A stretch of 64,000 nt of DNA from an uncultured Chloroflexia bacterium (GCA_963811305.1 CAWEQU010000008.1:68539-132538); one strand, 5' to 3'; counted from the stretch's first letter, positions 3,752 to 63,504 are shown. Notes: generated by a model from the sequence alone, not told the origin. A program made the numbers and translations.

Positions 3752-3836
3752 TGAGTGAGGACGGACGACGGACGACGGACGATGAAACGTGATGCGTGAG
3801 ATTAGTGTCTAACTCGTAATTCGTAATTCGTAATTC
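3741..3836. repeat. mosaic heptamer array: (GACGACG)n - GAAACGTGATGCGTGAG - (CGTAATT)3
   Basis: Tandem 7-nt periodicity read directly from the sequence. The array begins at the stop codon of the upstream CDS. Confidence 0.85.
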
Positions 3837-3843
3837 CATAAAA

Positions 3844-3923
3844 CCTCTGCGCACTCTGCGCCTCTGCGGTGAACCAATAAATAACTTGGCGTTCTTTGCT
3901 ATCTTGGCGTCTTGGCGTTTAGA
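3844..3923. repeat. ~80-bp interspersed element, copy B
   Basis: Matches 1514-1593 (CTCTGCGCACTCTGCGCCTCTGCGGTGAACCAATAAATAACTTGGCGTTCTT..ATCTTGGCGTCTTGGCGTTTAGA). Followed by two TTTGAAC units at 3927-3947. Confidence 0.8.
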
Positions 3924-3956
3924 TGGTTTTGAACTTTGAACTTTGGGAGGGGAAAG

Positions 3957-8646: not shown

Positions 8647-9870
8647 ATGGACAAATTAAACGCTGGGGACACCACTTTAGTCCTCATAAGCGCGGCTTTG
8701 GTTGCTCTTATGACGCCGGGACTGGCCTTCTTCTATGGAGGTCTAGTTCGCCGTAAGAACGTCCTGTCGGTCATGATGCAAAGCTTCATTTCCATGGGCG
8801 TAGTAACGATAATCTGGATATTCGTTGGTTTCAGTCTGGCCTTCTCAGGAGATTACCTGGGGCTGATCGGAGGCTTCGATTATGTCGGGTTGCGTGGAGT
8901 GGGATACGCACCCAACCCTACCTATGCGCCGACCATTCCGTTTCTGGTCTACTTCCTCTTCCAGGAGATGTTTGCTGTTATCACCCCGGCTCTCATCACC
9001 GGAGCCTTCGCTGACCGGGTGAACTTCAAGAGCTACTTGAAGTTCCTCGTCTTGTGGAGCTTGTTTGTCTACATACCTTTCGCGCATTGGGTTTGGGGAG
9101 GCGGCTTCCTCGCCCAGTGGGGGGTGAAGGACTTCGCGGGTGGCATAGTGGTCCACCTGAGCGCCGGAATAGCGGCACTCGCCTCTGTATTCGTTGTGGG
9201 CAAGCGAAAGCTCCACCCTGGCGAGAAGCTGCTTCCACACAACATCGCTTTCGTCGCGCTAGGTACGGGGCTGCTCTGGTTCGGCTGGTTCGGCTTCAAC
9301 GGCGGGAGCGCCCTGGCGGCCAATGGCGTCGCCGCTATCGCCTTCGTGAACACCGATATAGCCGCCTCCGTTGCGATGATTACCTGGCTCGCTATATCGT
9401 GGTTCCGTGACACCAGGCCAAGTATGGTGGGTGCTCTGACCGGTGCGGTGGCCGGCTTGGCGACCATTACCCCGGCAGCGGGTTACGTGAAACCCTGGGC
9501 GGCCGGAGTCATCGGCCTGTTAGCGGGCGTTATATGTTACTATGCCGTGCAATTCCGAATAAAACGGGACTGGGACGACGCCCTGGACGTATGGGGAGTA
9601 CACGGCGTGGGTGGTGCTCTGGGTGTAATACTGATGGGCGTCTTCGCCAGCGCGACCGTCAATGGTGTAGCAGGTCTGATAGAGGGCAACGCACAGCAGT
9701 TTGGAGTACAGGTCCTGGCTGTTGCAATCACAGGCGCCTATTCCTTCGGGGTTACATACGCTATCTTGAAGGTACTCAATATCTTCGAGCCGGTGCGGGT
9801 CTCGGAAGAGGCCGAAGCCGAGGGGCTTGATACTTTCCTGCATGGCGAGACGGCTTACGATAGCATGTAA
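8647..9870 (+). CDS. amtB: ammonium transporter (Amt family)
   Basis: 407 aa, 11-12 TM helices, with Amt signatures (AFFYGGLVRRKNV, DFAGGIVVHLSAGIAAL, LGTGLLWFGWFGFNGGSA, DVWGVHGVGGALG). Confidence 0.95.
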   Translation: MDKLNAGDTTLVLISAALVALMTPGLAFFYGGLVRRKNVLSVMMQSFISMGVVTIIWIFVGFSLAFSGDYLGLIGGFDYVGLRGVGYAPNPTYAPTIPFLVYFLFQEMFAVITPALITGAFADRVNFKSYLKFLVLWSLFVYIPFAHWVWGGGFLAQWGVKDFAGGIVVHLSAGIAALASVFVVGKRKLHPGEKLLPHNIAFVALGTGLLWFGWFGFNGGSALAANGVAAIAFVNTDIAASVAMITWLAISWFRDTRPSMVGALTGAVAGLATITPAAGYVKPWAAGVIGLLAGVICYYAVQFRIKRDWDDALDVWGVHGVGGALGVILMGVFASATVNGVAGLIEGNAQQFGVQVLAVAITGAYSFGVTYAILKVLNIFEPVRVSEEAEAEGLDTFLHGETAYDSM

Positions 9871-14485: not shown

Positions 14486-14610
14486 GTGCGTGAAACGTGA
14501 GGCGTCGTAATAGACGACGGACGACAAACGATGGACGATGGACGATGGACGATGGACGATGGACGATAGGTGCGTAAACTCGTAATTCGTAATTCGTAAT
14601 TCGTAATTCG
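14486..14610. repeat. mosaic heptamer array: GAAACGTGAGG - (GACGRYR)n incl. (GACGATG)x4 - (CGTAATT)x4
   Basis: Fills most of the divergent ECF-sigma/rpoN intergenic region. The 7-nt periodicity was read directly. Confidence 0.85.
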
Positions 14611-17470: not shown

Positions 17471-17530
17471 GGACGACGGACGACGGACGATAGACGATGA
17501 AACGTGATGCGTGATGCGTGATGCGTGAGG
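17471..17530. repeat. mosaic heptamer array: (GACGACG)x2-GACGATA-GACGATG-AAAC-(GTGATGC)x3
   Basis: Direct reading. It shows the same word order as 3761-3800. Confidence 0.85.
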
Positions 17531-23211: not shown

Positions 23212-23383
23212 GGAACCGCCAAGACGCCAAGAACGCCAAGTAAACGCCAAGATTTTAAGGGTAGGGCTTAGTAGTGGATTACTAGGGTGCCAGCCACGCA
23301 AGAAGAGGCAGATCATTGGAAAGCCATTTAATCCTTTCTATATCTTGATGGTTTCTTGGCGCTCTTGGCCTCTTAGCGGTTCC
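23212..23383. repeat. MITE-like element with ~45-bp imperfect terminal inverted repeats made of GCCAAGAC octamer words
   Basis: GGAACCGCCAAGACGCCAAGAACGCCAAGTAAACGCCAAGAT ... ATCTTGATGGTTTCTTGGCGCTCTTGGCCTCTTAGCGGTTCC. The left arm recurs at 59356-59393. Confidence 0.75.
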
Positions 23384-53053: not shown

Positions 53054-54595
53054 ATGGCAAAGTTGAAACCTCGTAAAGTTTATCTGGCTGTCCTGGCGCT
53101 AATACTGATGCCCTTGCTGGCAGCCTGTGGAACGGCCTCTTCGCCGGCTGTCGTTGCCCCGACCGGAACCGCCGTCGTGGCGGCTCCTACCGACACAACA
53201 CTCGTTGCGGCCCCAACAGATACCGCTGCTGTAGCGGCTGCTACCGAAACAGCTCCCGCGGTATCGCTTACACCGACCGTCCCACCTACGGTTCAGGCGG
53301 GGGGCGAAGGGTGCGCCAGTGGAGCCACCAAAATAACATGGTACGTCGGCCTGGGCGCGGGTGGCGACGCGAACGTGATCCCCAAGGAAGTGGCCTGGGT
53401 AGACAATTTCAACAAATCGCAGACTGAGGCCTGTGTAACTCTACAGGTCGTGCATAACCCCGAGTCATATGACACCCTCAAGGCCCAGCTTGCCGCCGGA
53501 CAAGGCCCCGACATCGTTGGCCCCGTCGGTAAGGCCGGACGCGCCAGCTTCCAGGGTAGCTGGGCGGACGTGAGCGCGCTGGCGGCAGAAGCCAACGTTG
53601 ACCTGAGCAAGTATGACCCGGCCCTGCTGGAATTCACCAAGGATGAGGGCGTGCTGGTCGGCATCCCGTTCGCCCTCTTCCCAAGCTTCATATACTACAA
53701 CAAAGCCCTCTTCGACGAGGCCAAGCTCCCCTACCCACCTCATAAGCTGGGTGAGAAGTACGACGGCAAGGACTGGAACCTCGATACACTCGCCGAGCTT
53801 GCCAAGAAGCTCACGGTAGACGCGGGCGGCAACGACGCGACTGCCTCTAACTTCGATGCCAAGAACATCAAGCAGTTCGGTTTCTACGAGTCGAACACTG
53901 ACGCTCGTGGTATAGCAACCCTCTTTGGAGGTGGCCTCCCTTACGATGCTGCCGATACCAAGACAGCCAAAATCCCCGATCACTGGCGAGCCGCCTGGAA
54001 GTGGTACTATGACAGCATGTGGACCCAGCACTACGCGCCGAACTACGATTACCAGCAGAGCGACCTGCTCGGCAAAGGCAACCCCTTCTCGTCCGGTAAC
54101 ACCGCCATGGCGCACTCTCATAGCTGGTTCACCTGCTGCTTCGACATCCAGAAGCTGAACTGGGATATAGCTGTGATGCCAACTATAAACGGCCAGGTTA
54201 CTGCTAAGCTCCACGGCGATACTTTCGCTATCTTGAAGCAGAGCAAGAACCAGAAGGTCGCGTTCAATGTTATGGCCAAGATGGTCGTGGACCCGGAGCT
54301 TTACCAGATATACGGCGGCATGCCTGCCAAGCCGGAAGACCGCGCCGCGTTCTTCACAGCGTTCGATGCTCGGGTAGCGCCGAACAAAGTCGACTGGACC
54401 GTGGCCGAGGAGATGGTCAAGCACCCGGACCTGCCGAATCACGAGTCCTGGCTGCCCAACCTGATCAAAGCCAACGACCTCTTTGGCAAGTTCCGCACGC
54501 TGATGGATCAGACGCCCGGCCTGGACATGGAAAGTGAAATCAACAAGTTCGAGTCCCAGCTTACGGACGTGTTCAAAACAGCCCCTACCCCGTAA
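53054..54595 (+). CDS. ABC sugar transporter substrate-binding lipoprotein
   Basis: Lipobox LLAACG, an Ala/Thr/Pro linker with internal repeats (VVAAPTDTTLVAAPTDTAAVAAATE), then a family-1 SBP-like body. Confidence 0.85.
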   Translation: MAKLKPRKVYLAVLALILMPLLAACGTASSPAVVAPTGTAVVAAPTDTTLVAAPTDTAAVAAATETAPAVSLTPTVPPTVQAGGEGCASGATKITWYVGLGAGGDANVIPKEVAWVDNFNKSQTEACVTLQVVHNPESYDTLKAQLAAGQGPDIVGPVGKAGRASFQGSWADVSALAAEANVDLSKYDPALLEFTKDEGVLVGIPFALFPSFIYYNKALFDEAKLPYPPHKLGEKYDGKDWNLDTLAELAKKLTVDAGGNDATASNFDAKNIKQFGFYESNTDARGIATLFGGGLPYDAADTKTAKIPDHWRAAWKWYYDSMWTQHYAPNYDYQQSDLLGKGNPFSSGNTAMAHSHSWFTCCFDIQKLNWDIAVMPTINGQVTAKLHGDTFAILKQSKNQKVAFNVMAKMVVDPELYQIYGGMPAKPEDRAAFFTAFDARVAPNKVDWTVAEEMVKHPDLPNHESWLPNLIKANDLFGKFRTLMDQTPGLDMESEINKFESQLTDVFKTAPTP

Positions 54596-54599
54596 AGTA

Positions 54600-54662
54600 G
54601 TTCAAGGTTCAAGGTTCAAAGTTCAAGGATTTTCTTTGAACTTTGAACCTTGAACCTTGAAC
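54600..54662 (+). repeat. intercistronic hairpin: (GTTCAAR)x4 / (YTTTGAAC-type)x4
   Basis: 29-nt arms, 28/29 complementary, 5 nt after the SBP stop codon. Confidence 0.9.
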
Positions 54663-54681
54663 AACGTAGGAGATATAGGTA

Positions 54682-55644
54682 ATGGCAACTGCGGATTTAG
54701 CCTCGCATCGAACATCCCAACCCAAGCGCCGGGTTTCGGTAGTGGAGCGCAAACGCGCCCGCTGGGGGCTGTTATTCCTGGCGCCCTGGTTCATTGGGTT
54801 ACTGGCGTTCCAGCTCTTGCCAATCGTGTCGACCGCATTCTTGTCGTTCACCGATTACAGTGCCACCAAAGAATTCGCGCCCGGCAATTTCAATATGGTC
54901 GGCTTTGACAATTATGGCCGCCTCTTCACCGACCCCCAACTCCTCCAATCTGTAGGCGTAACCGTAAAATTCGCTCTCATCGCCGTGCCTCTCGGGTTGG
55001 TGATCCCTCTCTGCTTTGCGCTGCTCGTCAACTCGAAGCACCTGATGGCTCCTAACGTTTTTAGGACCCTCTATTTTCTACCCACGGTTATCCCAATCGT
55101 CGCCGGGGTGATGGTCTTTCAGGGAGTGCTGAACGCGCAGTCCGGCTGGATCAATATGTCACTCAAAGCTATCGGGATCGAAGGGCCGCGCTGGTTGAGC
55201 GACCCTAACTGGGCAGTGCCCGCGCTCAACCTGTTGAGCCTGTGGGCCGTGGGCAACGCCATGATAATCCTGCTCGCGGGCTTGCAGGGCGTTCCTACGG
55301 AGATCCTGGAGGCGGCGACGGTAGACGGCGCTAACGGCGTGCAGCGCTTCTTCCGCATTACAGTCCCGATGATATCGCCCGTCATTTTCTACAATATCAC
55401 CCTCGGAGTTATCGGCGCTTTCCAATATTTCGTCGCGGCCCTGCTCATCGGCGGGCGCAATGGCGACCCCCAGGGGGCCACGCTCTTCTATAACCTGCAC
55501 TTCTACCGCCAGGCTTTTGTTTTCAACGATATGGGTTACGGTTCGGCACTGGCTCTGGTGATGTTTATTACGTTGGTGATCCTGACTTCGATCATGTTTT
55601 CTGTCGGGCAGAAGGCAGTTTACTACGCAGGCGGCGAGGCGTAA
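54682..55644 (+). CDS. ABC sugar transporter permease (MalF/CebF-like)
   Basis: Six TM helices and an EAA-like loop (EILEAATVDGANGVQRFFRITVPMISP). Confidence 0.88.
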   Translation: MATADLASHRTSQPKRRVSVVERKRARWGLLFLAPWFIGLLAFQLLPIVSTAFLSFTDYSATKEFAPGNFNMVGFDNYGRLFTDPQLLQSVGVTVKFALIAVPLGLVIPLCFALLVNSKHLMAPNVFRTLYFLPTVIPIVAGVMVFQGVLNAQSGWINMSLKAIGIEGPRWLSDPNWAVPALNLLSLWAVGNAMIILLAGLQGVPTEILEAATVDGANGVQRFFRITVPMISPVIFYNITLGVIGAFQYFVAALLIGGRNGDPQGATLFYNLHFYRQAFVFNDMGYGSALALVMFITLVILTSIMFSVGQKAVYYAGGEA

Positions 55645-55646
55645 AT

Positions 55647-55707
55647 GAGTTACGAATTACGAATTGAGAAGAACACTTAAGAACTCGTAATTCGTAATTC
55701 GTAACTC
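55647..55707 (+). repeat. intercistronic hairpin built from CGTAATT words
   Basis: GAGTTACGAATTACGAATTGAG ... CTCGTAATTCGTAATTCGTAACTC. Confidence 0.85.
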
Positions 55708-55730
55708 GTAATTAGAAGAGTGAGGGATAG

Positions 55731-56817
55731 ATGGCAACCTTGACCCGAGAAGAAAATAGACGTCTAGCGACATCCGAACGCCGGACCAGGTGGGGACCGC
55801 GCCGTCTTTCCGCACGGGTGTTTGTCACCCTTGTTGGGTTGGTAGTCATGCTGATCTTCCTGATGCCGCTGGGCTATATGTTCATGACTGCGTTCAAGAA
55901 CGATTCTCAGCTTTCCGCTCAGCACGCACCTCTGTGGCCCGCCGAAGCCTCCACCTACAACTACCAGGGCAAGGAGCTGCCACTTTACGAGGTGCCAACA
56001 AGCGAAGGGACCAAGCAGTGGGCTTTGGTCAAGGGCTTCCGTGAAGATCAGCGACTTTGTTGACCCCGCCCATCCTGAGCAGGGCGTATTCAATTGGATA
56101 GGGAGATACCGGACGCTTGACCCGGTTTACCACTTCGCGCCGACCTTCGACAACTTTGTCATGGCCTGGAACCAGGTGAACTTCACCACTCTGTTCAAGA
56201 ATACCTTCTTGATCGCCATCATCAGCACGGTGGGCACGTTGATTTCGTGCATCCTCGTGGCCTATGGGTTTGCACGCTTTCGTATTCCCGGCAAGAATAT
56301 CCTTTTCATCATCCTGATCTCGACGATAATCCTGCCGCCACAGGCGACTATCATACCGCTCTACATATTGTTCGCCAAACTGGGGTGGACGGGGACGTGG
56401 CTGCCGCTACTCGTGCCCGCCTTCTTCGCCAACGCATATAATGTCTTCTTGCTGCGCCAGTATTTTATGAGCATCCCCAAGGAAATGGACGAGGCCGCGA
56501 TGCTCGATGGGGCCAGCCCGTTGCGGACGCTTATATCGGTTATACTTCCCCAGTCCATCCCGGCAATCACGGCGGTCGCCATCTTCCACTTCTTCTTTAC
56601 CTGGAACGACTATTTCGCGCCCCTGGTTTACCTGGTAGGCAAAGAGGACCTGTACCCGATCTCGGTAGGCATAGCCAAGTTTGTAGGTACATTCAGTATC
56701 TACCCGGGGCGAGCAATGGCAACGGCGGTGATGACTCTCATTCTCCCTGCGGTGATATTCTTCTTCGCCCAGCGCCAGTTCATGCAGGGTGTGGTAGTTA
56801 CGGGTGTAGATAAGTAG
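55731..56817 (+). pseudogene. ABC sugar transporter permease (MalG/CebG-like), one apparent frameshift
   Basis: N-terminal TM helix in 55731-56063; the remainder, with the EAA loop (DEAAMLDGASPLRTLISVILPQS), in 56041-56817. Shift near 56035-56041. Confidence 0.85.
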
Positions 56818-56821
56818 CATT

Positions 56822-56868
56822 AGGATTTTGGATTTTGGATTGGATAATAGCCTCCAAAATCTAAAATT
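56822..56868 (+). repeat. intercistronic hairpin built from GGATTTT words
   Basis: AGGATTTTGGATTTTGGATTGG ... CCTCCAAAATCTAAAATT. Confidence 0.75.
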
Positions 56869-56912
56869 GAGTAGGGAGACCAATATTCCATGCAAGTAGA
56901 GGACAATCAAGA

Positions 56913-58264
56913 ATGATAACCCCGGAAATCCGAAATCCGAAATCCGAAATCCGAAATTGGCCGGTTGATTTTGCCTGGGGTGCTGCCACGGCTGCTTACC
57001 AGATCGAGGGCGCGTTCAACGAGGATGGCAAGGGAGAGTCGATATGGGACCGCTTCAGCCACACGCCGGGTAAGGTACATAACGGCGATACGGGCGACGT
57101 GGCGTGCGACCATTACCATCGCTACCGCGAAGATATCGCTTTGATGAAGCAGATAGGTCTGAAGGCATATCGCTTTTCGATCTCCTGGCCCAGGGTCGTC
57201 CCAAACGGGCGCGGCGCGGCCAATCCCCCCGGGCTGGATTTCTATGATAGGCTCGTGGATGAATTGCTGGAGGCGAATATTCAACCATTCCCGACCCTTT
57301 ACCACTGGGACCTGCCACAGGCTCTGCAAGATATAGGCGGCTGGGGAAACCGCGACACCTGCGGCTATTTCGCTGATTACGCCGCACTCATGGCGAGACG
57401 CCTCGCCGACCGGGTTAGCCACTGGACTACCTTCAATGAGCCGTGGGTTTCGGCTTTTATCGGTAATTATGAAGGCAGACACGCTCCAGGCTTGACCTAT
57501 ATGAAGCTGGCGATGCACGTAACGCATCATCTGCTGGTCGCGCACGGGCTTGCGACACAAGCAATCCGCACTGTAGCCCCTCAAGTCAAGATAGGCATCG
57601 TACTGGACTTCGCACCCCCTGAGCCAGCCAACGATACCGAGGCGAACCGTGCCGCCGTAGAAGTCAATGTGGCAGCGGGGTGGAGCGCTCTTCTTAGACC
57701 CACTTTTCCGTGGACACTATCCACCCGCCGTCCAACCAGCGGTTGAAAAATACGAGGTGCCGGTGCAGTCGGGAGACCATGACCTGATCGCGCAACCTCT
57801 CGACTTTGTAGGCATCAACTTCTACCGGCGCATGGTGTTTGACGAGAAAGGCAACCTGAAGCGCGTTCCAGGGGCTGAGTACACCGAAATGGACTGGGAA
57901 GTCCACGCACCCGCGTTCAAGCGTCTGCTGCTTCACCTTTAACAGCGAGTACAGCCTACCGCCCATCTATATTACCGAGAACGGGGCTGCGTTCACAGAT
58001 AATGTCAGCCATGACGGCGAGGTCCACGATGAGCGCCGCGTGAATTATCTTCGGGAGCATCTTGGCGCGGTGCGTGAGGCCATGTCGGAAGGCGCGGATA
58101 TACGCGGTTATTTTGCCTGGTCGCTGCTCGACAACTTTGAGTGGGCAGAGGGCTATTCCAAGCGCTTCGGACTCGTATATATCGATTATCCGACTCAGCA
58201 GCGCATCCTCAAAGATAGCGGGAAATGGTACGCGCAGGTCATAGCGCAGAACAGAATTGACTAG
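56913..58264 (+). pseudogene. bglB: GH1 beta-glucosidase, two apparent frameshifts
   Basis: [15 protein letters not shown], the acid/base motif TFNEPWV and the nucleophile motif YITENGAAF, with the tail WSLLDNFEWAEGYSKRFGLVYID. Pieces are 56913-57746, 57667-57942 and ~57940-58264. Confidence 0.88.
56925..56957 (+). repeat. heptamer array (GAAATCC)x4.7 inside the 5' end of the bglB reading frame
   Basis: Encodes [12 protein letters not shown] between the only in-frame ATG (56913) and the conserved GH1 N-terminus. Confidence 0.85.
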
Positions 58265-58265
58265 A

Positions 58266-58322
58266 GTTCAAAGTTCAAAGTTCAAGGAGATTACTTTGAA
58301 CCTTGAACTTTGAACCTTGAAC
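58266..58322 (+). repeat. intercistronic hairpin of GTTCAAR words
   Basis: GTTCAAAGTTCAAAGTTCAAGG ... CTTTGAACCTTGAACTTTGAACCTTGAAC, right after the bglB stop codon. Confidence 0.9.
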
Positions 58323-58342
58323 CGCCCCGAGGAAGCAATTTG

Positions 58343-59356
58343 ATGAAGAGTGGGAGCCAACGGCGAGACCTGCTGGTGGGAGTTGACGTAGGCGGGACCA
58401 AGGTCGCCGTGCTGGTGGTAGATAGAAGCTACAACGTACTCAGCCAGACCATTCTACCGACCATCCTGGACAGTCCCCAGGCCACTTTAGCCTCGATCAC
58501 ACAAGCTGTACGGCAAAGCGTTGAGCAGGCCGAAGCAACTTTGGACCGCGTAGCCGCAGTAGGCGTGGGCGTTCCGGGGCGCGTAGATACCGCAACGGGG
58601 CTAGTGCGCCGTGCGGTGAACCTCGGTTGGGAAGAACTGCCCGTGGGCCAACTCCTCTCGGCTCATCTCGGCGTGCCGTGCTTGCTGGAGAACGATGTGA
58701 CGCTGGCGGCTACGGGTGCGCAGCACTATATGGGTGGCCTAGCCAGCCGTAATATGGCTTATGTCAGCGTAGGCACTGGTATTGCTGCCGGACTTGTCCT
58801 CGATGGCCGCATCTATCGAGGCGCGCACGGTATGGCAGGTGAAATCGGCCACATGATCATCGCCGTTGATGGGCCTCGCTGCCAATGTGGTGCGTATGGC
58901 TGCCTGGAGGCAGTAGCGGCAGGCCCGGCGATTGCACGCCTGGGAGAGGAAGCTGCTTTATCCTCCGGCGATACGCTGTTGCGCCGGTACAGGACTGTGA
59001 CCGCAGAGGCCGTATACCAGGCAGCACGAGAGGGGGACGCTGCCGCTACTGCTATTATCTGCAAAGTGAGCGGGCACCTCGCTCTGGCTCTCCAGCAGTT
59101 GATCGTAGCCTACGACGTGGAATGTATCGTATTTGGCGGGGGTGTCTCGCGTGAGGGAGATACTTTCCTTCAGCCAATACTTGTCGAATTAGCGCGCCTG
59201 CGCGAGCACTCTGTACTGACCAGCGAAATGCTAGAACCGGGCATGATTTGCATCTTGCCGCCTGACTACGATGCGGGCGCTTGGGGAGCGGTGCTTCTGG
59301 CGGACGAAGGCATAGCAGGCAGAAGGCATGAAGCAGAAAGCAGTACTAACGTTTAA
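58343..59356 (+). CDS. ROK-family sugar kinase (glucokinase/N-acetylglucosamine kinase-like)
   Basis: LLVGVDVGGTKVAV (ATP motif), and GEIGHMIIAVDGPRCQCGAYGCLE (ROK zinc motif). No HTH is present. GAGGAAG precedes ATG 58343; the ORF opens at 58310, inside the hairpin. Confidence 0.85.
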   Translation: MKSGSQRRDLLVGVDVGGTKVAVLVVDRSYNVLSQTILPTILDSPQATLASITQAVRQSVEQAEATLDRVAAVGVGVPGRVDTATGLVRRAVNLGWEELPVGQLLSAHLGVPCLLENDVTLAATGAQHYMGGLASRNMAYVSVGTGIAAGLVLDGRIYRGAHGMAGEIGHMIIAVDGPRCQCGAYGCLEAVAAGPAIARLGEEAALSSGDTLLRRYRTVTAEAVYQAAREGDAAATAIICKVSGHLALALQQLIVAYDVECIVFGGGVSREGDTFLQPILVELARLREHSVLTSEMLEPGMICILPPDYDAGAWGAVLLADEGIAGRRHEAESSTNV

Positions 59357-59393
59357 CCGCCAAGACGCCAAGACGCCAAGTAAACGCCAAGAT
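59356..59393 (+). repeat. octamer word block ACCGCCAAGACGCCAAGACGCCAAGTAAACGCCAAGAT
   Basis: Near-identical to the left arm of the element at 23212-23383. Single arm only. Confidence 0.85.
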
Positions 59394-59446
59394 TTTTATG
59401 GGTTTGCTGCCTACCGCTTTCTGCCTACTGACAAGGGAGTGACGGG

Positions 59447-61051
59447 ATGACAAAGACAAATACAGAACTCGTAGGAACGATGCTTACCCTTGAGCAAGCC
59501 GTCGGCCAGAAGTTGCTAGCAGCTTTCCAGGGTTACCAGGTACCCACGGAGTTAGCAGATTTACTGGGGCGCACGCAGATCGGTGGGGTAACACTGTTCC
59601 GCTCATTGAATGTGCAGGACCCTTCTCAGGTACGCGAACTGACCAGTTCCTTGCAAGCGGCAGCAGCCATAGCCGGGCAGCCTCCACTTTTGATTTGCGC
59701 GGACCAGGAGGGCGGCCAGTTGTTGGCTATGGCCGGTACTACACCCTTCCCAGGCAACATGGCACTGGGGGCTACGCACTCACCCGCGCTCAGTCGCCGC
59801 ACGGGCCTCGCAATAGGGCGCGAGCTTGCCGCTATGGGTATAAACGTCAACTACGCCCCGGTCTGCGATGTGAACGTCAACCCGCAAAACCCGGTAATAG
59901 GCACCCGCTCTTTCGGCGAGGACCCTGCCGAGGTGGGGCGGCTTGGCGCGGCAATGATCGAGGGGCTACAGGCAGCAGGGGTGGCAGCCACCGCCAAACA
60001 CTTCCCAGGTCACGGCGATACGGCCACCGACTCGCACTATGGCACGCCCGTGCTACCCTTCGGCGAAGAGCGTTTGCGCAGGGTCGAGTTGCCCCCGTTT
60101 AGCGCCGCGATTGAGGCGGGCGTCAAGCTGATGATGACCGCACATATTGCCCTTCCGGGTCTCACAGGCGGCCTCGAAGTGCCTGCCACCCTTTCCCCAG
60201 CGATCATGCGGAAGCTTTTGCGCGACGATCTCGGCTTTGAGGGGATAGTAGTCAGCGACGCGATGGACATGGGCGCTATTCAGAGAGGGCTGGGTTTGGT
60301 AATTGACTGTATCGCTGCATCGGCGGCTGGGGTAGATTTGCTGTTGCTCGCCGACTGCGGCGATGGCTTCGAGGCTGTATATGCAGCTCTGCTGCAAGCA
60401 GCTAAAAGAGGTCTGCTTGCACACGGCGAAATCTTGGCATCAGCCCAGAGAGTGCTAGAACTGAAAGCATGGCTCAGCAAGCAGGAACAACCCGGCCTGG
60501 AGGTCATACAGTGCGACGAGCATCGCGCCCTCGCCTACGAGATAGCTGCCCATTCAGTTACTCTCGTGCGCGATGAGGAGGGGTGCCTGCCGCTAAGTCT
60601 CGAGGACGATGCCAGGATAGCGCTTATCCTGCCTCGTACAGCAAACCTCACGCCCGCCGACACCTCTTCTTACGATAGGCCGGTCCTGGCGGAGATGCTG
60701 CGCAGATACCATCCCGCTGTTGACCAGATAGATGTGCCCACCAACCCCACTTCGTCCGATATTGGCGATGTGCTGCAACAGGTAAAAGGTTACGACCTTG
60801 TGATAGCGGGTACTATCAACGCCTTCCAGCATTCGGGGCAGGCCGCCCTGGTCAATTCGCTCCTTGAGACTGACAGCAAGGTAATAGCTGTGGCGCTTCG
60901 TCTACCATATGACCTATCGGCATATCCTGGTGCGCCTACATATATCTGCACGTATAATCTTCAGCCGCCGTCAATGGAAGCCCTGGCCGACGCCCTGTGG
61001 GGGCGAATCCCCTTCCTGGGACGATCACCTGTGACGGTGGCCCTCGGCTAG
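59447..61051 (+). CDS. GH3 glycosidase (NagZ-type beta-N-acetylhexosaminidase-like)
   Basis: ADQEGGQL..., NVNYAPVCDVN..NPVIGTRSFG, and KHFPGHGDTATDSH (the Asp-His dyad region typical of NagZ-type GH3). Confidence 0.82.
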   Translation: MTKTNTELVGTMLTLEQAVGQKLLAAFQGYQVPTELADLLGRTQIGGVTLFRSLNVQDPSQVRELTSSLQAAAAIAGQPPLLICADQEGGQLLAMAGTTPFPGNMALGATHSPALSRRTGLAIGRELAAMGINVNYAPVCDVNVNPQNPVIGTRSFGEDPAEVGRLGAAMIEGLQAAGVAATAKHFPGHGDTATDSHYGTPVLPFGEERLRRVELPPFSAAIEAGVKLMMTAHIALPGLTGGLEVPATLSPAIMRKLLRDDLGFEGIVVSDAMDMGAIQRGLGLVIDCIAASAAGVDLLLLADCGDGFEAVYAALLQAAKRGLLAHGEILASAQRVLELKAWLSKQEQPGLEVIQCDEHRALAYEIAAHSVTLVRDEEGCLPLSLEDDARIALILPRTANLTPADTSSYDRPVLAEMLRRYHPAVDQIDVPTNPTSSDIGDVLQQVKGYDLVIAGTINAFQHSGQAALVNSLLETDSKVIAVALRLPYDLSAYPGAPTYICTYNLQPPSMEALADALWGRIPFLGRSPVTVALG

Positions 61052-61114
61052 TTCAAAGTTCAAGGTTCAAAGTTCAAAGTAACCTCTTTGAACTTTGAAC
61101 CTTGAACTTTGAAC
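61051..61114 (+). repeat. intercistronic hairpin, perfect 29-bp stem of GTTCAAR words
   Basis: GTTCAAAGTTCAAGGTTCAAAGTTCAAAG taacct CTTTGAACTTTGAACCTTGAACTTTGAAC. It starts at the last base of the GH3 stop codon. Confidence 0.92.
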
Positions 61115-61135
61115 CGTAAAAGGAGGTAGGCGCTG

Positions 61136-62293
61136 ATGTTCTATGTTGAGCCTGGGGCTATAGTGACGCCTGAGGGCTTACTGGAGGATCGCGCGGTGCT
61201 TGTGGATGAGGAGCGCATCGGTGCCGTTGATTATACTTCCCGGTTATCATGCCCGGCGGGAGCGCGCCGAGTGCAAGCTGCCGGTCTGTTGCTCGCTCCG
61301 GGGTTTATTGACCTCCAGATAAATGGGGCCTTCGGCAATGATTTCACAAACGAGCCAGGCACTATCTGGGAGGTCGCCTCCCAGCTGCCCAGGTATGGTG
61401 TAACTTCATTTCTCCCGACGATTGTTAGCTCGCCGCGTGAGATGGTGGTCATGGCCCAGGATGTCATCTGCGAAGGGGCACCCCCAGGGTTCAAGGGTGC
61501 TACTCCGCTTGGGCTTCACCTCGAAGGGCCGTTTCTCAACCCGGCAAAGCGCGGTGCGCACAATCCGACGCACCTGCGCCTGCCTGATACGACAGAGGCT
61601 CAAAGCTGGAGGCTGGATAGAGGTATTCGTCTGGTGACGCTGGCCCCTGAATTACCCGGCGCACATGAGATGATTGAAATGCTGGTAGCGCAGGGTATAG
61701 TCGTCAGCGCGGGCCATTCGCTAGCCAGTTATGAGGAGGGGGTCGCCGGTATAAATGCGGGTATCACATATGGCACTCACTTGTTCAATGCCATGCCTGC
61801 ATTGGACCACAGGGAACCAGGACTGGTGGGTGCGCTGCTTGGTCATAGCCAGGTAACCGTTGGAATAATAGCCGACGGCATCCACCTGCACCCCAGCCTG
61901 GTGGCGCTGGCCTGGAAAGCTAAAGGCCACCTCCGGGTAAGCCTGGTGACGGACGCCATGGCGGCGCTCGGCATGCCTGCGGGCACCTACACGCTGGGGG
62001 ACCAGGACGTGATCGTGGAGGATGAGGCGGCGCGCCTGGCAGATGGCAGGTTGGCGGGAAGCGTGCTGACTCTGGACCAGGCGGTACGCAACCTGGTCAA
62101 TTTTGCAGGTTGTCGTCCATACGAGGCCATCTCGATGGTAACCGCCGTACCTGCATCGATACTCAGAATGGCGGACTCACGTGGCCGGATTGCGCCTGGC
62201 TTCCTGGCCGACATGGTCTTGCTGGATAGCGATCTGCGAGTTGTGGAGACGTTGGTAGCAGGTGAGGTCGTTTATTCAACCCGGGCCGGATAG
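61136..62293 (+). CDS. nagA: N-acetylglucosamine-6-phosphate deacetylase
   Basis: PGFIDLQINGAFG, HLEGPFLNP.KRGAH, SAGHS, THLFNAM.. motifs in NagA order. Confidence 0.88.
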   Translation: MFYVEPGAIVTPEGLLEDRAVLVDEERIGAVDYTSRLSCPAGARRVQAAGLLLAPGFIDLQINGAFGNDFTNEPGTIWEVASQLPRYGVTSFLPTIVSSPREMVVMAQDVICEGAPPGFKGATPLGLHLEGPFLNPAKRGAHNPTHLRLPDTTEAQSWRLDRGIRLVTLAPELPGAHEMIEMLVAQGIVVSAGHSLASYEEGVAGINAGITYGTHLFNAMPALDHREPGLVGALLGHSQVTVGIIADGIHLHPSLVALAWKAKGHLRVSLVTDAMAALGMPAGTYTLGDQDVIVEDEAARLADGRLAGSVLTLDQAVRNLVNFAGCRPYEAISMVTAVPASILRMADSRGRIAPGFLADMVLLDSDLRVVETLVAGEVVYSTRAG

Positions 62294-62295
62294 GA

Positions 62296-62444
62296 GTTCA
62301 AAGTTCAAGGTTCAAAGTTCAAAGTAGTTGCGTAATTACATTGAACATTGAACATTGAACTTTGAACTTTGAACCTTGAACTTTGAACTTTGAACTTTGA
62401 ACCTTGAACCTTGAACCTTGAACCTTGAACCTTGAACTTTGAAC
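62296..62444 (+). repeat. asymmetric inverted heptamer arrays: (GTTCAAR)x4 versus 15 units of (CATTGAA x3, CYTTGAA x12)
   Basis: The left 29-mer is identical to 61051-61079. The right array is 106 nt with a 7-nt period, counted directly. Confidence 0.92.
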
Positions 62445-62502
62445 TACAAAGAAGGAGAAAGCGTGGGGACTCAGAGACGAGATACTGGAGCAGCCGGGTG
62501 TT

Positions 62503-63504
62503 TTGCGTGGCTGGATAGAGACGCAGATGCAAACGGTATCCAGCATAGCCGAGGCTATTCTTTCGCGCGACGTGCAGTTCATCTTCCTGGCGGCGAGGGG
62601 CAGTTCAGACCATGCAGGGGTGTATGCGCAGTACCTTTTTGGCTCGCGGAATCGCCTGGCGGTGGCGCTGGCAGCTCCATCGCTGTTCACGATGTACCCT
62701 CAGTCGCCGAAGCTGCATAACTCACTAGTGATCGGAATATCGCAGTCCGGGCAGTCTCCCGACATAGTGAGGGTTATCGAGGAAGGGAGACGCCAGGGCG
62801 CTATTACGCTGGCTATCACCAACGACCCTGATTCTCCGTTGGCGCTGGCTGCGGAGCTTATTCTAGGCGTGCGTGCCGGGCCGGAGAGAGCTGTGGCTGC
62901 CACCAAGACTTACACGGCACAGCTGTTAGCGCTGGCTGCGCTCTCTGTTGCCCTGGCAGGGAACAAGGAGGCTGACCTGGCAGATTTGGCCACCGTGCCA
63001 GGGGCCGTACAGTCAGTGCTGGAGCTGGAGTCGGAAGCCGAACGTATCGCCGGAAGGTACGCTTCAATGGACCATTGTGTGGTGCTGGGCCGGGGTTACA
63101 ACTATGCCACGGCCCAGGAATGGGCGCTGAAGCTCAAGGAGCTTGCATATGTATTTACGGACGTTTATTCGACAGCAGATTTCCAGCACGGACCGATAGC
63201 TATCGTTGAGCCGGGGTTCCCGGTGCTGGCTGTAGCTCCTGAAGGGCCGGTCCTAGCGGACCAGCTAGCCTTGCTCTCAAGGCTGCGTGACGAGTACCGG
63301 GCTGAACTGGTACTCATCTCAGACAGCGCCCAGGTTCTGTCCCTAGGGGATGGGAAGTTACGTCTGCCATCGGGGGTGCCCGAGTGGCTGACCCCGATAG
63401 TTGGCATTGTGCCGGCGCAGTTATTCTGCTACCATCTCACCCGCGCCAAGGGTTACGATACGGAAAATCCCCGCACGCTGCACAAGATAACTCTGACCGA
63501 ATAG
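62503..63504 (+). CDS. tandem-SIS-domain sugar-phosphate isomerase/deaminase (GlmS-C/AgaS/NagB-II-like)
   Basis: FIFLAARGSSDHAGVYAQYLF, VIGISQSGQSPD, and second SIS VVLGRGYNYATAQEWALKLKE..DFQHGP. The frame stays open upstream (WGLRDEILEQPGVL). The likely GTG start at 62463 is out of frame by 1 nt. Confidence 0.75.
   Translation: MRGWIETQMQTVSSIAEAILSRDVQFIFLAARGSSDHAGVYAQYLFGSRNRLAVALAAPSLFTMYPQSPKLHNSLVIGISQSGQSPDIVRVIEEGRRQGAITLAITNDPDSPLALAAELILGVRAGPERAVAATKTYTAQLLALAALSVALAGNKEADLADLATVPGAVQSVLELESEAERIAGRYASMDHCVVLGRGYNYATAQEWALKLKELAYVFTDVYSTADFQHGPIAIVEPGFPVLAVAPEGPVLADQLALLSRLRDEYRAELVLISDSAQVLSLGDGKLRLPSGVPEWLTPIVGIVPAQLFCYHLTRAKGYDTENPRTLHKITLTE

Follow-up and report, generated by a model that had tools for sequence, protein, structure and literature searches.

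The operon at positions 53054-63504 (+ strand) of a 64,000-nucleotide (nt) stretch of DNA from an uncultured Chloroflexia bacterium (GCA_963811305.1, CAWEQU010000008.1:68539-132538; hereafter the window, whose numbering is used throughout) carries arrays of short repeated words at all seven of its gene junctions. Its eight genes encode, in order, a solute-binding protein (SBP), two ATP-binding cassette (ABC) permeases (perm1 and perm2), a GH1 glycosidase, a ROK-family kinase, a GH3 glycosidase, a nagA-like amidohydrolase and a SIS-domain protein. Word-array hairpins are present at six of the seven junctions (54596-62462), five of them very stable, and the seventh junction holds a one-armed octamer block. 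The junction hairpins belong to a class of polar tandem repeats, with heptamers as the usual and octamers as the occasional unit, that has been described before and occurs throughout the genome; by comparison between species, only the hairpin that follows the SBP gene looks like a selected mRNA element. The explanation that we consider probable is that members of this repeat class colonized the junctions independently, that the hairpin after the SBP gene acts as an mRNA stem-loop and that the others are tolerated insertions.

A stem-loop slot after the SBP gene

The gap between the SBP and perm1 genes (54596-54681; all junction features described here and below lie on the + strand) contains four GTTCAAR units facing four complementary ones and folds at -49.4 kcal/mol (z -11.3; z-scores are relative to dinucleotide shuffles). 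The hairpin (54598-54666), with GTTCAAR x4 at 54600-54628 and YTTGAAC x4 at 54636-54662, begins 2 nt past the SBP stop codon and ends just before an AGGAG Shine-Dalgarno sequence, about 15 nt ahead of the perm1 start. Its apical loop is 3 nt in the predicted fold, and 7 nt lie between the arrays as delimited by Tandem Repeats Finder.

Every congener has a strong hairpin at this position, built from different sequences: GTTCAAR in the analyzed metagenome-assembled genome (G000; other G numbers denote the genomes of relatives), GGATTTT in G020 and an unrelated 21-bp stem in G011. Six other congeners have a GC-rich stem in which three pairs are changed on both sides, and the support from this covariation appears modest and weakly significant. 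G009 has a 270-nt structured spacer instead, and seven genomes of two other families carry other stems of 14-20 bp.

We surveyed 27 orthologous SBP-perm1-perm2 operons from Chloroflexota, with perm1 identities of 45 to 89%. The upstream SBP gene (by tblastn) and the downstream perm2 gene were verified in the 15 more distant loci, the closer loci duplicating ones checked earlier. Ungapped inverted repeats were scored in the 120 nt after each stop codon, with a score of at least 12 taken as strong. After the SBP stop, the score is at least 12 in 20 of the 27 operons and at least 9 in all of them, with a median minimum free energy (MFE) of about -54 kcal/mol (123 nt), whereas after the perm1 stop only four reach 12, the median is about -29 kcal/mol, and G011 and G020, with their heptamer hairpins, account for two of the four. 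The slot is filled by at least 10 unrelated sequences across the survey; because structure is kept while sequence is replaced, it looks like a selected RNA stem-loop. Of seven junctions in G000 that precede a first ABC permease gene and were folded, five form strong hairpins, and three of these consist of heptamers; the gene upstream of the five is an SBP gene by Pfam in two cases and by PDB similarity in a third. A separate observation concerns contig C9:555904-556327, outside the window, where the gap ahead of an ABC permease gene is 424 nt long and begins with a terminator-like perfect stem and a T-run, followed by a long, highly structured GC-rich leader that is a candidate riboswitch.

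The repetitive extragenic palindromic (REP) sequence between malE and malF of E. coli, described by Newbury and colleagues in 1987, reportedly stabilizes the upstream mRNA segment. The G000 stem-loop likewise comes right behind the binding-protein gene in an ABC sugar operon and has no U-tract, and on this analogy the most likely role of the GTTCAAR palindrome is that of an ordinary intercistronic stem-loop. The gene order and the gaps of 78-169 nt suggest that the operon is transcribed as one mRNA; because it would be read in this form, the palindromes would have to fold into stems (-29 to -49 kcal/mol). The palindrome after the SBP gene could then protect the SBP message from 3'-to-5' decay or mark a processing site, and SBP would be made in excess of the permeases, as with malE and malF. 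An RNase III gene is present in G000. The other junction hairpins probably have incidental effects at most.

The slot also bears on the view that all the hairpins, including this one, are neutral or selfish DNA and that the spacer after the SBP gene is a permissive hotspot for palindromes, which we regard as quite improbable. Turnover is indeed fast, with three unrelated hairpins in three species of 89-91% perm1 identity, the covariation is statistically weak, and no organism is known in which a function has been demonstrated for the repeat class (PMC4692102, PMC2670836). A permissive hotspot does not, however, predict a stable stem-loop of this strength in essentially every orthologue from several families while the adjacent junction is unstructured, nor would it lead one to expect compensatory changes in the GC-rich stem that congeners share.

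Hairpins at the other junctions

Arrays were located by direct reading and with Tandem Repeats Finder, and the positions assigned to them by an initial annotation of this DNA were confirmed by both and by RNAfold. Folding of each gap, which that annotation had proposed, gave -29 to -49 kcal/mol at five junctions, with z-scores from -6 to -11. Three of the remaining four strong hairpins are again built from GTTCAAR. The GH1-ROK gap (58265-58343; -29.0 kcal/mol, z -6.1) has three GTTCAAR and four YTTGAAC units in a hairpin at 58265-58323 with one A-C mismatch. The GH3-nagA hairpin (61051-61114; four plus four units, loop TAACCT; -43.9 kcal/mol, z -8.7) overlaps the TAG stop codon of GH3 by one base, and direct reading bears out the perfect 29-bp stem reported for it, closed by a loop of 6 nt. 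At the nagA-SIS junction (62294-62445; -47 kcal/mol, z -7.4), 4.4 units of GTTCAAR (62295-62325) face 15.0 units of YTTGAAC (62341-62445) according to Tandem Repeats Finder, in agreement with the 4-versus-15-unit structure first described; the short arm can pair in many registers, and the frequency of the MFE structure is 0.03. The perm1-perm2 gap (55645-55730; -30.2 kcal/mol, z -7.0) is of the AATTACG/CGTAATT family, its hairpin (55645-55713) combining TTACGAA x2.3 at 55650-55665 with a CGTAATT-type array of 4.1 units at 55685-55713.

At the perm2-GH1 junction (56823-56868), the GGATTTT array (2.7 units, 56823-56841) exists as annotated; taken alone, the hairpin placed at 56822-56868 is weak (z -2.5), with CCAAAATCTAAAATT at 56853-56868 as a poor partner, and a stronger partner lies inside the GH1 coding region. 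This is a GAAATCC array of 4.7 units (56925-56957, Tandem Repeats Finder), in frame at the GH1 N-terminus, with which GGATTTT pairs in both the MFE and centroid folds of 56815-56965 (-40.8 kcal/mol, z -3.0). The predicted pairing encloses the GH1 Shine-Dalgarno sequence and AUG. The GH1 gene of G020 is without the GAAATCC array, the net difference being +27 nt in G000. A comparable array, ATTCCGC x4, occurs in the first codons of the GH3 gene of G011 (locus L013, about position 9365).

The ROK-GH3 junction (59357-59393) has one arm of the dispersed CGCCAAGA octamer block and no hairpin (z +0.8), and here the initial description as a one-armed block stands. The CGCCAAGA block, at 59357-59446, is half of a stereotyped composite of CTCTGCG repeats, an AT-rich linker and CTTGGCGT repeats. 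The composite with its CGCCAAGA half recurs in the opposite orientation at 1513-1600, 3844-3918 and 23217-23378 of the window.

The A/G variants among the units are mostly mirrored by T/C on the opposite arm, giving perfect Watson-Crick pairs. The initial proposal that G-U pairs keep the stems intact does not describe the rule, there being one G-U pair and one A-C mismatch across the four GTTCAAR hairpins. None of the junctions has a terminator-like site on the + strand; their stems are rich in A and U, and what comes after them is a Shine-Dalgarno sequence. Intrinsic (Rho-independent) termination, which had been suggested to act in part at these hairpins, was ruled out, as no junction has a GC-rich stem with a U-tract. 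Internal promoters in the operon were not above chance. A known RNA family was also rejected: Rfam 15 gave nothing at the gathering score for the junction hairpins, and its sub-threshold matches were to eukaryotic miRNA-precursor hairpins, on both strands.

Comparison of the junctions with related species

The closest species, G011, has 82-93% amino-acid identity and full synteny with G000, and G020, next in order, is similar. G011 shares only the perm1-perm2 hairpin with G000. This AATTACG hairpin is common to G000, G011 and G020; its unit numbers differ among the three and its A/G variants are mirrored. Six other congeners have no hairpin there (-7.5 to -14.4 kcal/mol). At the perm2-GH1 and GH1-ROK junctions, relatives have other words or none; in the GH1-ROK gap, G011 has AATCTAA words and G020 just two CTTGAAC units.

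The last two junctions differ most plainly. In six relatives the GH3-nagA junction is 3-28 nt long and has no hairpin, and the G000 palindrome is an insertion that brings a new stop codon and, behind it, a new Shine-Dalgarno sequence. Eight relatives have unstructured nagA-SIS gaps of 29-100 nt (z 0.2 to 1.9). Among the 6 to 8 relatives compared, both hairpins are found in G000 only. The GTTCAAR word itself is absent from G011 and 19 other congeners (25 searched); G000 and G004 have hundreds of matches, and one genome of another family has 151. G005 and G101 also carry the word. Word repertoires do not follow phylogeny (G004, G005, G020, G001 and G101 compared with G011).

By this comparison most of the junction hairpins are recent and lineage-specific. 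The use of distinct words at successive junctions, which the initial annotation had noted as unexplained, is accounted for by independent colonization, with relatives carrying other words at the same junctions: the words differ because each junction was colonized separately from a pool of about 25 word families. The same annotation had envisaged REP-like control at every junction. Comparative support for this exists at the SBP-perm1 junction, in the contrast between 20 and 4 of 27 operons described above, and is missing elsewhere, given the unshared hairpins at GH3-nagA and nagA-SIS and the lack of a G-U bias.

A genome-wide class of polar repeats

G000 has 775 period-7 arrays of three or more exact copies, and each of the other periods from 4 to 12 gives 0-54. 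When mismatches are tolerated, the number of heptamer arrays is 987, and these fall into about 25 recurrent families of words, led by GACGATA, GGATTTT, GACGATG, GACGACG, GATGCGT, CGTAATT and GTTCAAR. By crude gene calls, 620 of the 987 (63%) are at most 20% coding, compared with a non-coding share of 21% for the genome. Arrays occupy 19% of co-directional, 12% of convergent and 14% of divergent gaps, and one-armed arrays are as common as hairpins.

The arrays obey a strict polarity. Among 108 same-word inverted pairs, each family has a fixed arm order with no exception (AAAGGAT 27 to 0, GTTCAAA 17 to 0, AATTACG 17 to 0, ACGAGTT 10 to 0), and in nearly every case G is no rarer than C on the strand that forms the 5' arm. 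The CGCCAAGA octamer family, with about 130 copies, behaves in the same way: all 28 of its inverted pairs run forward-then-reverse. When every array is labeled as 5'-type or 3'-type by the arm order of its family, neighboring arrays of different words are ordered 5'-then-3' in 38 cases, 5'-then-5' in 11, 3'-then-3' in 15 and 3'-then-5' in none. Since the polarity holds for neighbors that are not complementary, the sites are not organized by the ability to pair. Mosaics of several word arrays in series fill many gaps (for example, window 3759-3945, 14513-14610 and 17471-17528), and these are also ordered with 5'-type words first and 3'-type words last.

Placement relative to genes is similarly regular. 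For isolated arrays in the G-rich form, the median distance to the stop codon of a left-hand + strand gene is -1 nt, and 83 of 104 such arrays after + strand genes are nearer to their 5' neighbor. The genome contains 21 GTTCAAR hairpins with about 4 units per arm (the 5' arm has 4 in 13 of them) and with loops of 6-60 nt that are all unrelated. Because they have their arms in common only, and no common core, we ruled out a miniature inverted-repeat transposable element. The G-quadruplex-forming subclass of Rehm et al. calls for four or more G3 tracts in an array and does not include these arrays, GTTCAAR, CGTAATT, GGATTTT and GCCAAGAC having no GGG run. Stop-codon content was ruled out by inspection as the cause of the polarity: the 5'-arm strand of GTTCAAR is free of stops and that of AAAGGAT is not. 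Mismatches in the array-built hairpins of G000 show no sense-strand bias (49 G-U versus 62 A-C). Neighboring sites share words no more than expected genome-wide (36 pairs versus 33.7), indicating no local spread. Same-species strains were sought in metagenomes for polymorphism in unit number, and the nearest sequences had at most 67% identity.

The layout is part of the explanation that we favor. Arrays adjoin the flanking genes and point into the gap, with the G-rich strand of the word beginning 0-4 nt past the stop codon and the complementary form stopping about 20 nt ahead of the next start, leaving the Shine-Dalgarno sequence free. The same word on both sides yields a palindrome of about 4+4 units, and the unit number would then drift by slippage, as in the 4-versus-15 case. 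Most hairpins would have been inserted in the sole dispensable space, that between stop codon and Shine-Dalgarno sequence.

The polarity admits a further reading, in which the hairpins act on DNA, either as cruciform or slipped structures or as oriented sites for a nucleoid or repair protein, and in which the polarity reflects a protein or a repeat-adding enzyme engaging the two flanks. It would suit a polarity that is symmetric between the strands, does not depend on which way genes are transcribed and applies to non-complementary neighboring arrays, and it would suit the presence of arrays in convergent as well as divergent gaps. Against it, the analysis turned up no candidate protein or enzyme, about 25 words would need many readers or one that is indifferent to sequence, and the anchoring of arrays to stop and start codons is a feature of expression; we hold this reading to be very unlikely.

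A bolder proposal is that heptamer palindromes form an evolvable supply of intercistronic stem-loops, written in polar fashion from two sides, then recruited into stabilizer slots, with slippage as a rheostat. We offer it as an improbable extension. The writing step is speculation: the G-rich strand would be laid from both flanks inward, as if the 3' ends at a break were extended with the same word. Such two-sided addition would fit, because the convergent polarity is strict and the arrays are placed at the stop codon.

How unusual is the operon?

The operon is an outlier in array density. Its run of seven array-bearing junctions compares with a longest run of five elsewhere in G000 by crude gene calls; the automatic count missed this operon on account of its frameshift-split genes, and the figure of seven comes from manual curation. 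ABC-permease junctions in G000 are not enriched overall, with arrays at 8 of 35 compared with 19% genome-wide.

Several points weigh against the combination of independent colonization and a single functional slot. Shuffles of array occupancy reach a run of seven in 0.1% of trials (P ~0.001), and 4 of the 21 GTTCAAR hairpins of G000 lie within these 8 kb, for which a rough Poisson estimate is ~4e-4 after scanning all positions. As the seven-junction run and the four clustered hairpins exceed the neutral model, some selection or local copying may have operated in this operon. G011 has some structure at five of the seven junctions. For the slot after the SBP gene, the covariation score of the GC-rich stem was reached by 19 of 500 shuffles and its double changes by 76 of 500, and the 27 operons surveyed are related rather than 27 independent trials. 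Finally, we infer co-transcription, 3' ends and processing alike.

Some of these points would be expected if all the junction hairpins were selected, as a cascade of stabilizers, RNase III sites or attenuators that sets every cistron ratio, with the repeat class as a regulatory toolkit. The occupation of all seven junctions, rare in shuffles, the structure at five junctions of G011, the enrichment of arrays in co-directional gaps and their precise placement between a stop codon and an intact Shine-Dalgarno sequence all agree with it, as do the GGATTTT/GAAATCC pair enclosing the GH1 start codon, the retention of the perm1-perm2 hairpin with mirrored A/G variants in three species, and the idea published for the hairpins between hupS and hupL (PMC2670836). 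We nevertheless think this unlikely. Hairpins at GH3-nagA and nagA-SIS are absent in 6 to 8 relatives, where the junctions are tight or unstructured, and six congeners do without the one at perm1-perm2. Moreover, the sense strand has no G-U bias (49 versus 62), the polarity rule extends to arrays that are unable to pair, one-armed arrays equal hairpins in frequency, and the ABC-operon junctions are in general not enriched (8/35 versus 19%).

Relation to known repeat systems

The nearest counterparts are the heptameric simple sequence repeats (SSRs) GGGAATC of Xanthomonas and GGGGAYT of Nostoc PCC 7120 (Rehm et al., 2015; PMC4692102). They form convergent pairs of about 4 units within 50 bp of a stop codon, are transcribed, have no known function, and in Xanthomonas occupy positions that are not common to Xcc and Xac (PMC4692102). 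For long SSRs that paper cites Mrazek et al. (2007). The G000 arrays resemble these repeats in the over-representation of 7-nt units, in their mostly intergenic location, in having about 4 units and convergent pairs, in having the G-rich strand right behind a stop codon or its complement shortly before a gene, and in positions that are not conserved between species. They differ in that about 25 families co-exist where the others have one word, most words have no run of three G and hence no G-quadruplex option, the polarity extends to neighboring arrays of different words, and one hairpin lies in a slot that is structurally conserved across operon orthologues.

In cyanobacteria, a hairpin of 7-bp short tandemly repeated repetitive (STRR) sequences lies between the co-transcribed genes hupS and hupL, for which the untested idea of 'transcript stability or translational coupling' was put forward (PMC2670836, PMC2661322). 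The G000 hairpins are likewise built from 7-bp repeats between genes of one operon; the phylum and the words are different, and G000 has comparative evidence on which junctions are constrained. Within Chloroflexia, (GATAGRA)n heptamer satellites have been described in Chloroflexus aurantiacus (Subirana and Messeguer, 2019; PMC6749651), and the most abundant G000 family, GACGATA/GATAGAC, is a near-identical word. That study reports dispersed satellites of one word, and hairpins, polarity and operon context are not described in it. The TAACTGA direct repeats of Beggiatoaceae and cyanobacteria (MacGregor, 2015; PMC4679880) are also intergenic heptamer arrays with a fixed orientation to the downstream start and a patchy phylogenetic distribution. 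Unlike the G000 arrays, they are almost exclusively direct (one inverted case), consist of one word and end 1 nt before the start codon.

REP sequences are also different: they are imperfect palindromes, conserved and about 35 nt long, that REP-associated tyrosine transposases (RAYTs) mobilize, and the G000 elements are palindromes of tandem words, each with its own loop. Mobilization of this kind was ruled out for the heptamer arrays, given the unique hairpin loops and a Y1_Tnp gene that is flanked by GC-rich REP-like inverted repeats and not by heptamer arrays. This IS200/RAYT-like gene lies at contig C8:381825-382166, outside the window; the REP-like sequences noted around it and at C9:309330-309572 contain GTAGGGGCG/CGCCCCTAC, and a similar REP-like palindrome fills the ROK-GH3 junction of G011 (-84 kcal/mol). 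The GC-rich REP-like repeats form a second system of palindromes that is independent of the heptamer arrays.

Genes of the operon and quality of the assembly

Pfam supports the gene identities given in the initial annotation, and the operon is one for the uptake and catabolism of amino sugars or chitooligosaccharides. The SBP lipoprotein (53054-54595), first gene of the transport block, has no Pfam match; its assignment relies on PDB similarity (phmmer), to the sugar-binding lipoprotein UspC (E 3.5e-9) and to MalE-type proteins, and on orthologues upstream of perm1 in 27 operons. Both permeases match BPD_transp_1, perm1 at 54682-55644 and perm2 at 55731-56817, the latter split into open reading frames (ORFs) at 55731-56063 and 56041-56817. 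They are followed by the GH1 beta-glycosidase (56913-58264; Glyco_hydro_1, E 2e-102; ORF in fragments), the ROK-family sugar kinase (58343-59356; ROK, E 2e-59), a GH3 beta-N-acetylglucosaminidase-like gene (59447-61051; Glyco_hydro_3, E 2e-84, with NagA_C below the cut-off), the nagA-like amidohydrolase (61136-62293; Amidohydro_1) and a SIS-domain sugar isomerase or deaminase (62463-63504; SIS, E 6e-34) with a GTG start at 62463. All are on the + strand. Upstream of the SBP gene, Pfam identifies a ROK/MarR regulator and a LacI-type regulator.

Relative to G011, there are +1 insertions in perm2 at 56049 and in GH1 at 57661 and 57941, an extra base just after the start of the SIS gene (62466-62469; GTGGGGA versus GTGGCA) that shifts the frame, and an apparent +1 insertion in the LacI gene at about 52641. 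The G011 counterparts of these frameshifted genes (perm2, GH1, SIS and LacI) are intact. The density is about five +1 frameshifts per 13 kb, and two other BPD_transp_1 genes elsewhere in G000 are also split. Because these split genes suggest a comparable rate genome-wide, the frameshifts are probably assembly indels rather than signs of operon decay, which fits an assembly of 4.6 Mb with 71% completeness in only 21 contigs. Decay specific to the operon as the driver of repeat accumulation was rejected on the same grounds.

Biological significance

Heptamer repeats (STRR and their relatives) have been known since 1990, and to our knowledge they are still without a function. The feature described here is real and orderly, a Chloroflexia case of a known repeat class, in which the functional idea is backed comparatively at one of seven junctions. 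The operon amounts to a natural experiment, with one slot in which a stem-loop is kept down to 45% perm1 identity and neighboring junctions that carry recent, unconserved copies. In two species, G000 and G020, a heptamer palindrome occupies the post-SBP slot where others have an ordinary hairpin, and this raises the question of whether a heptamer palindrome can stand in for a conventional mRNA-stabilizing stem-loop. If it cannot, the operon is just one more instance of a repeat class already known. If, beyond this, palindromes of this kind did form an evolvable supply of intercistronic stem-loops, the STRR/heptamer class would acquire both a mechanism of origin and a function.

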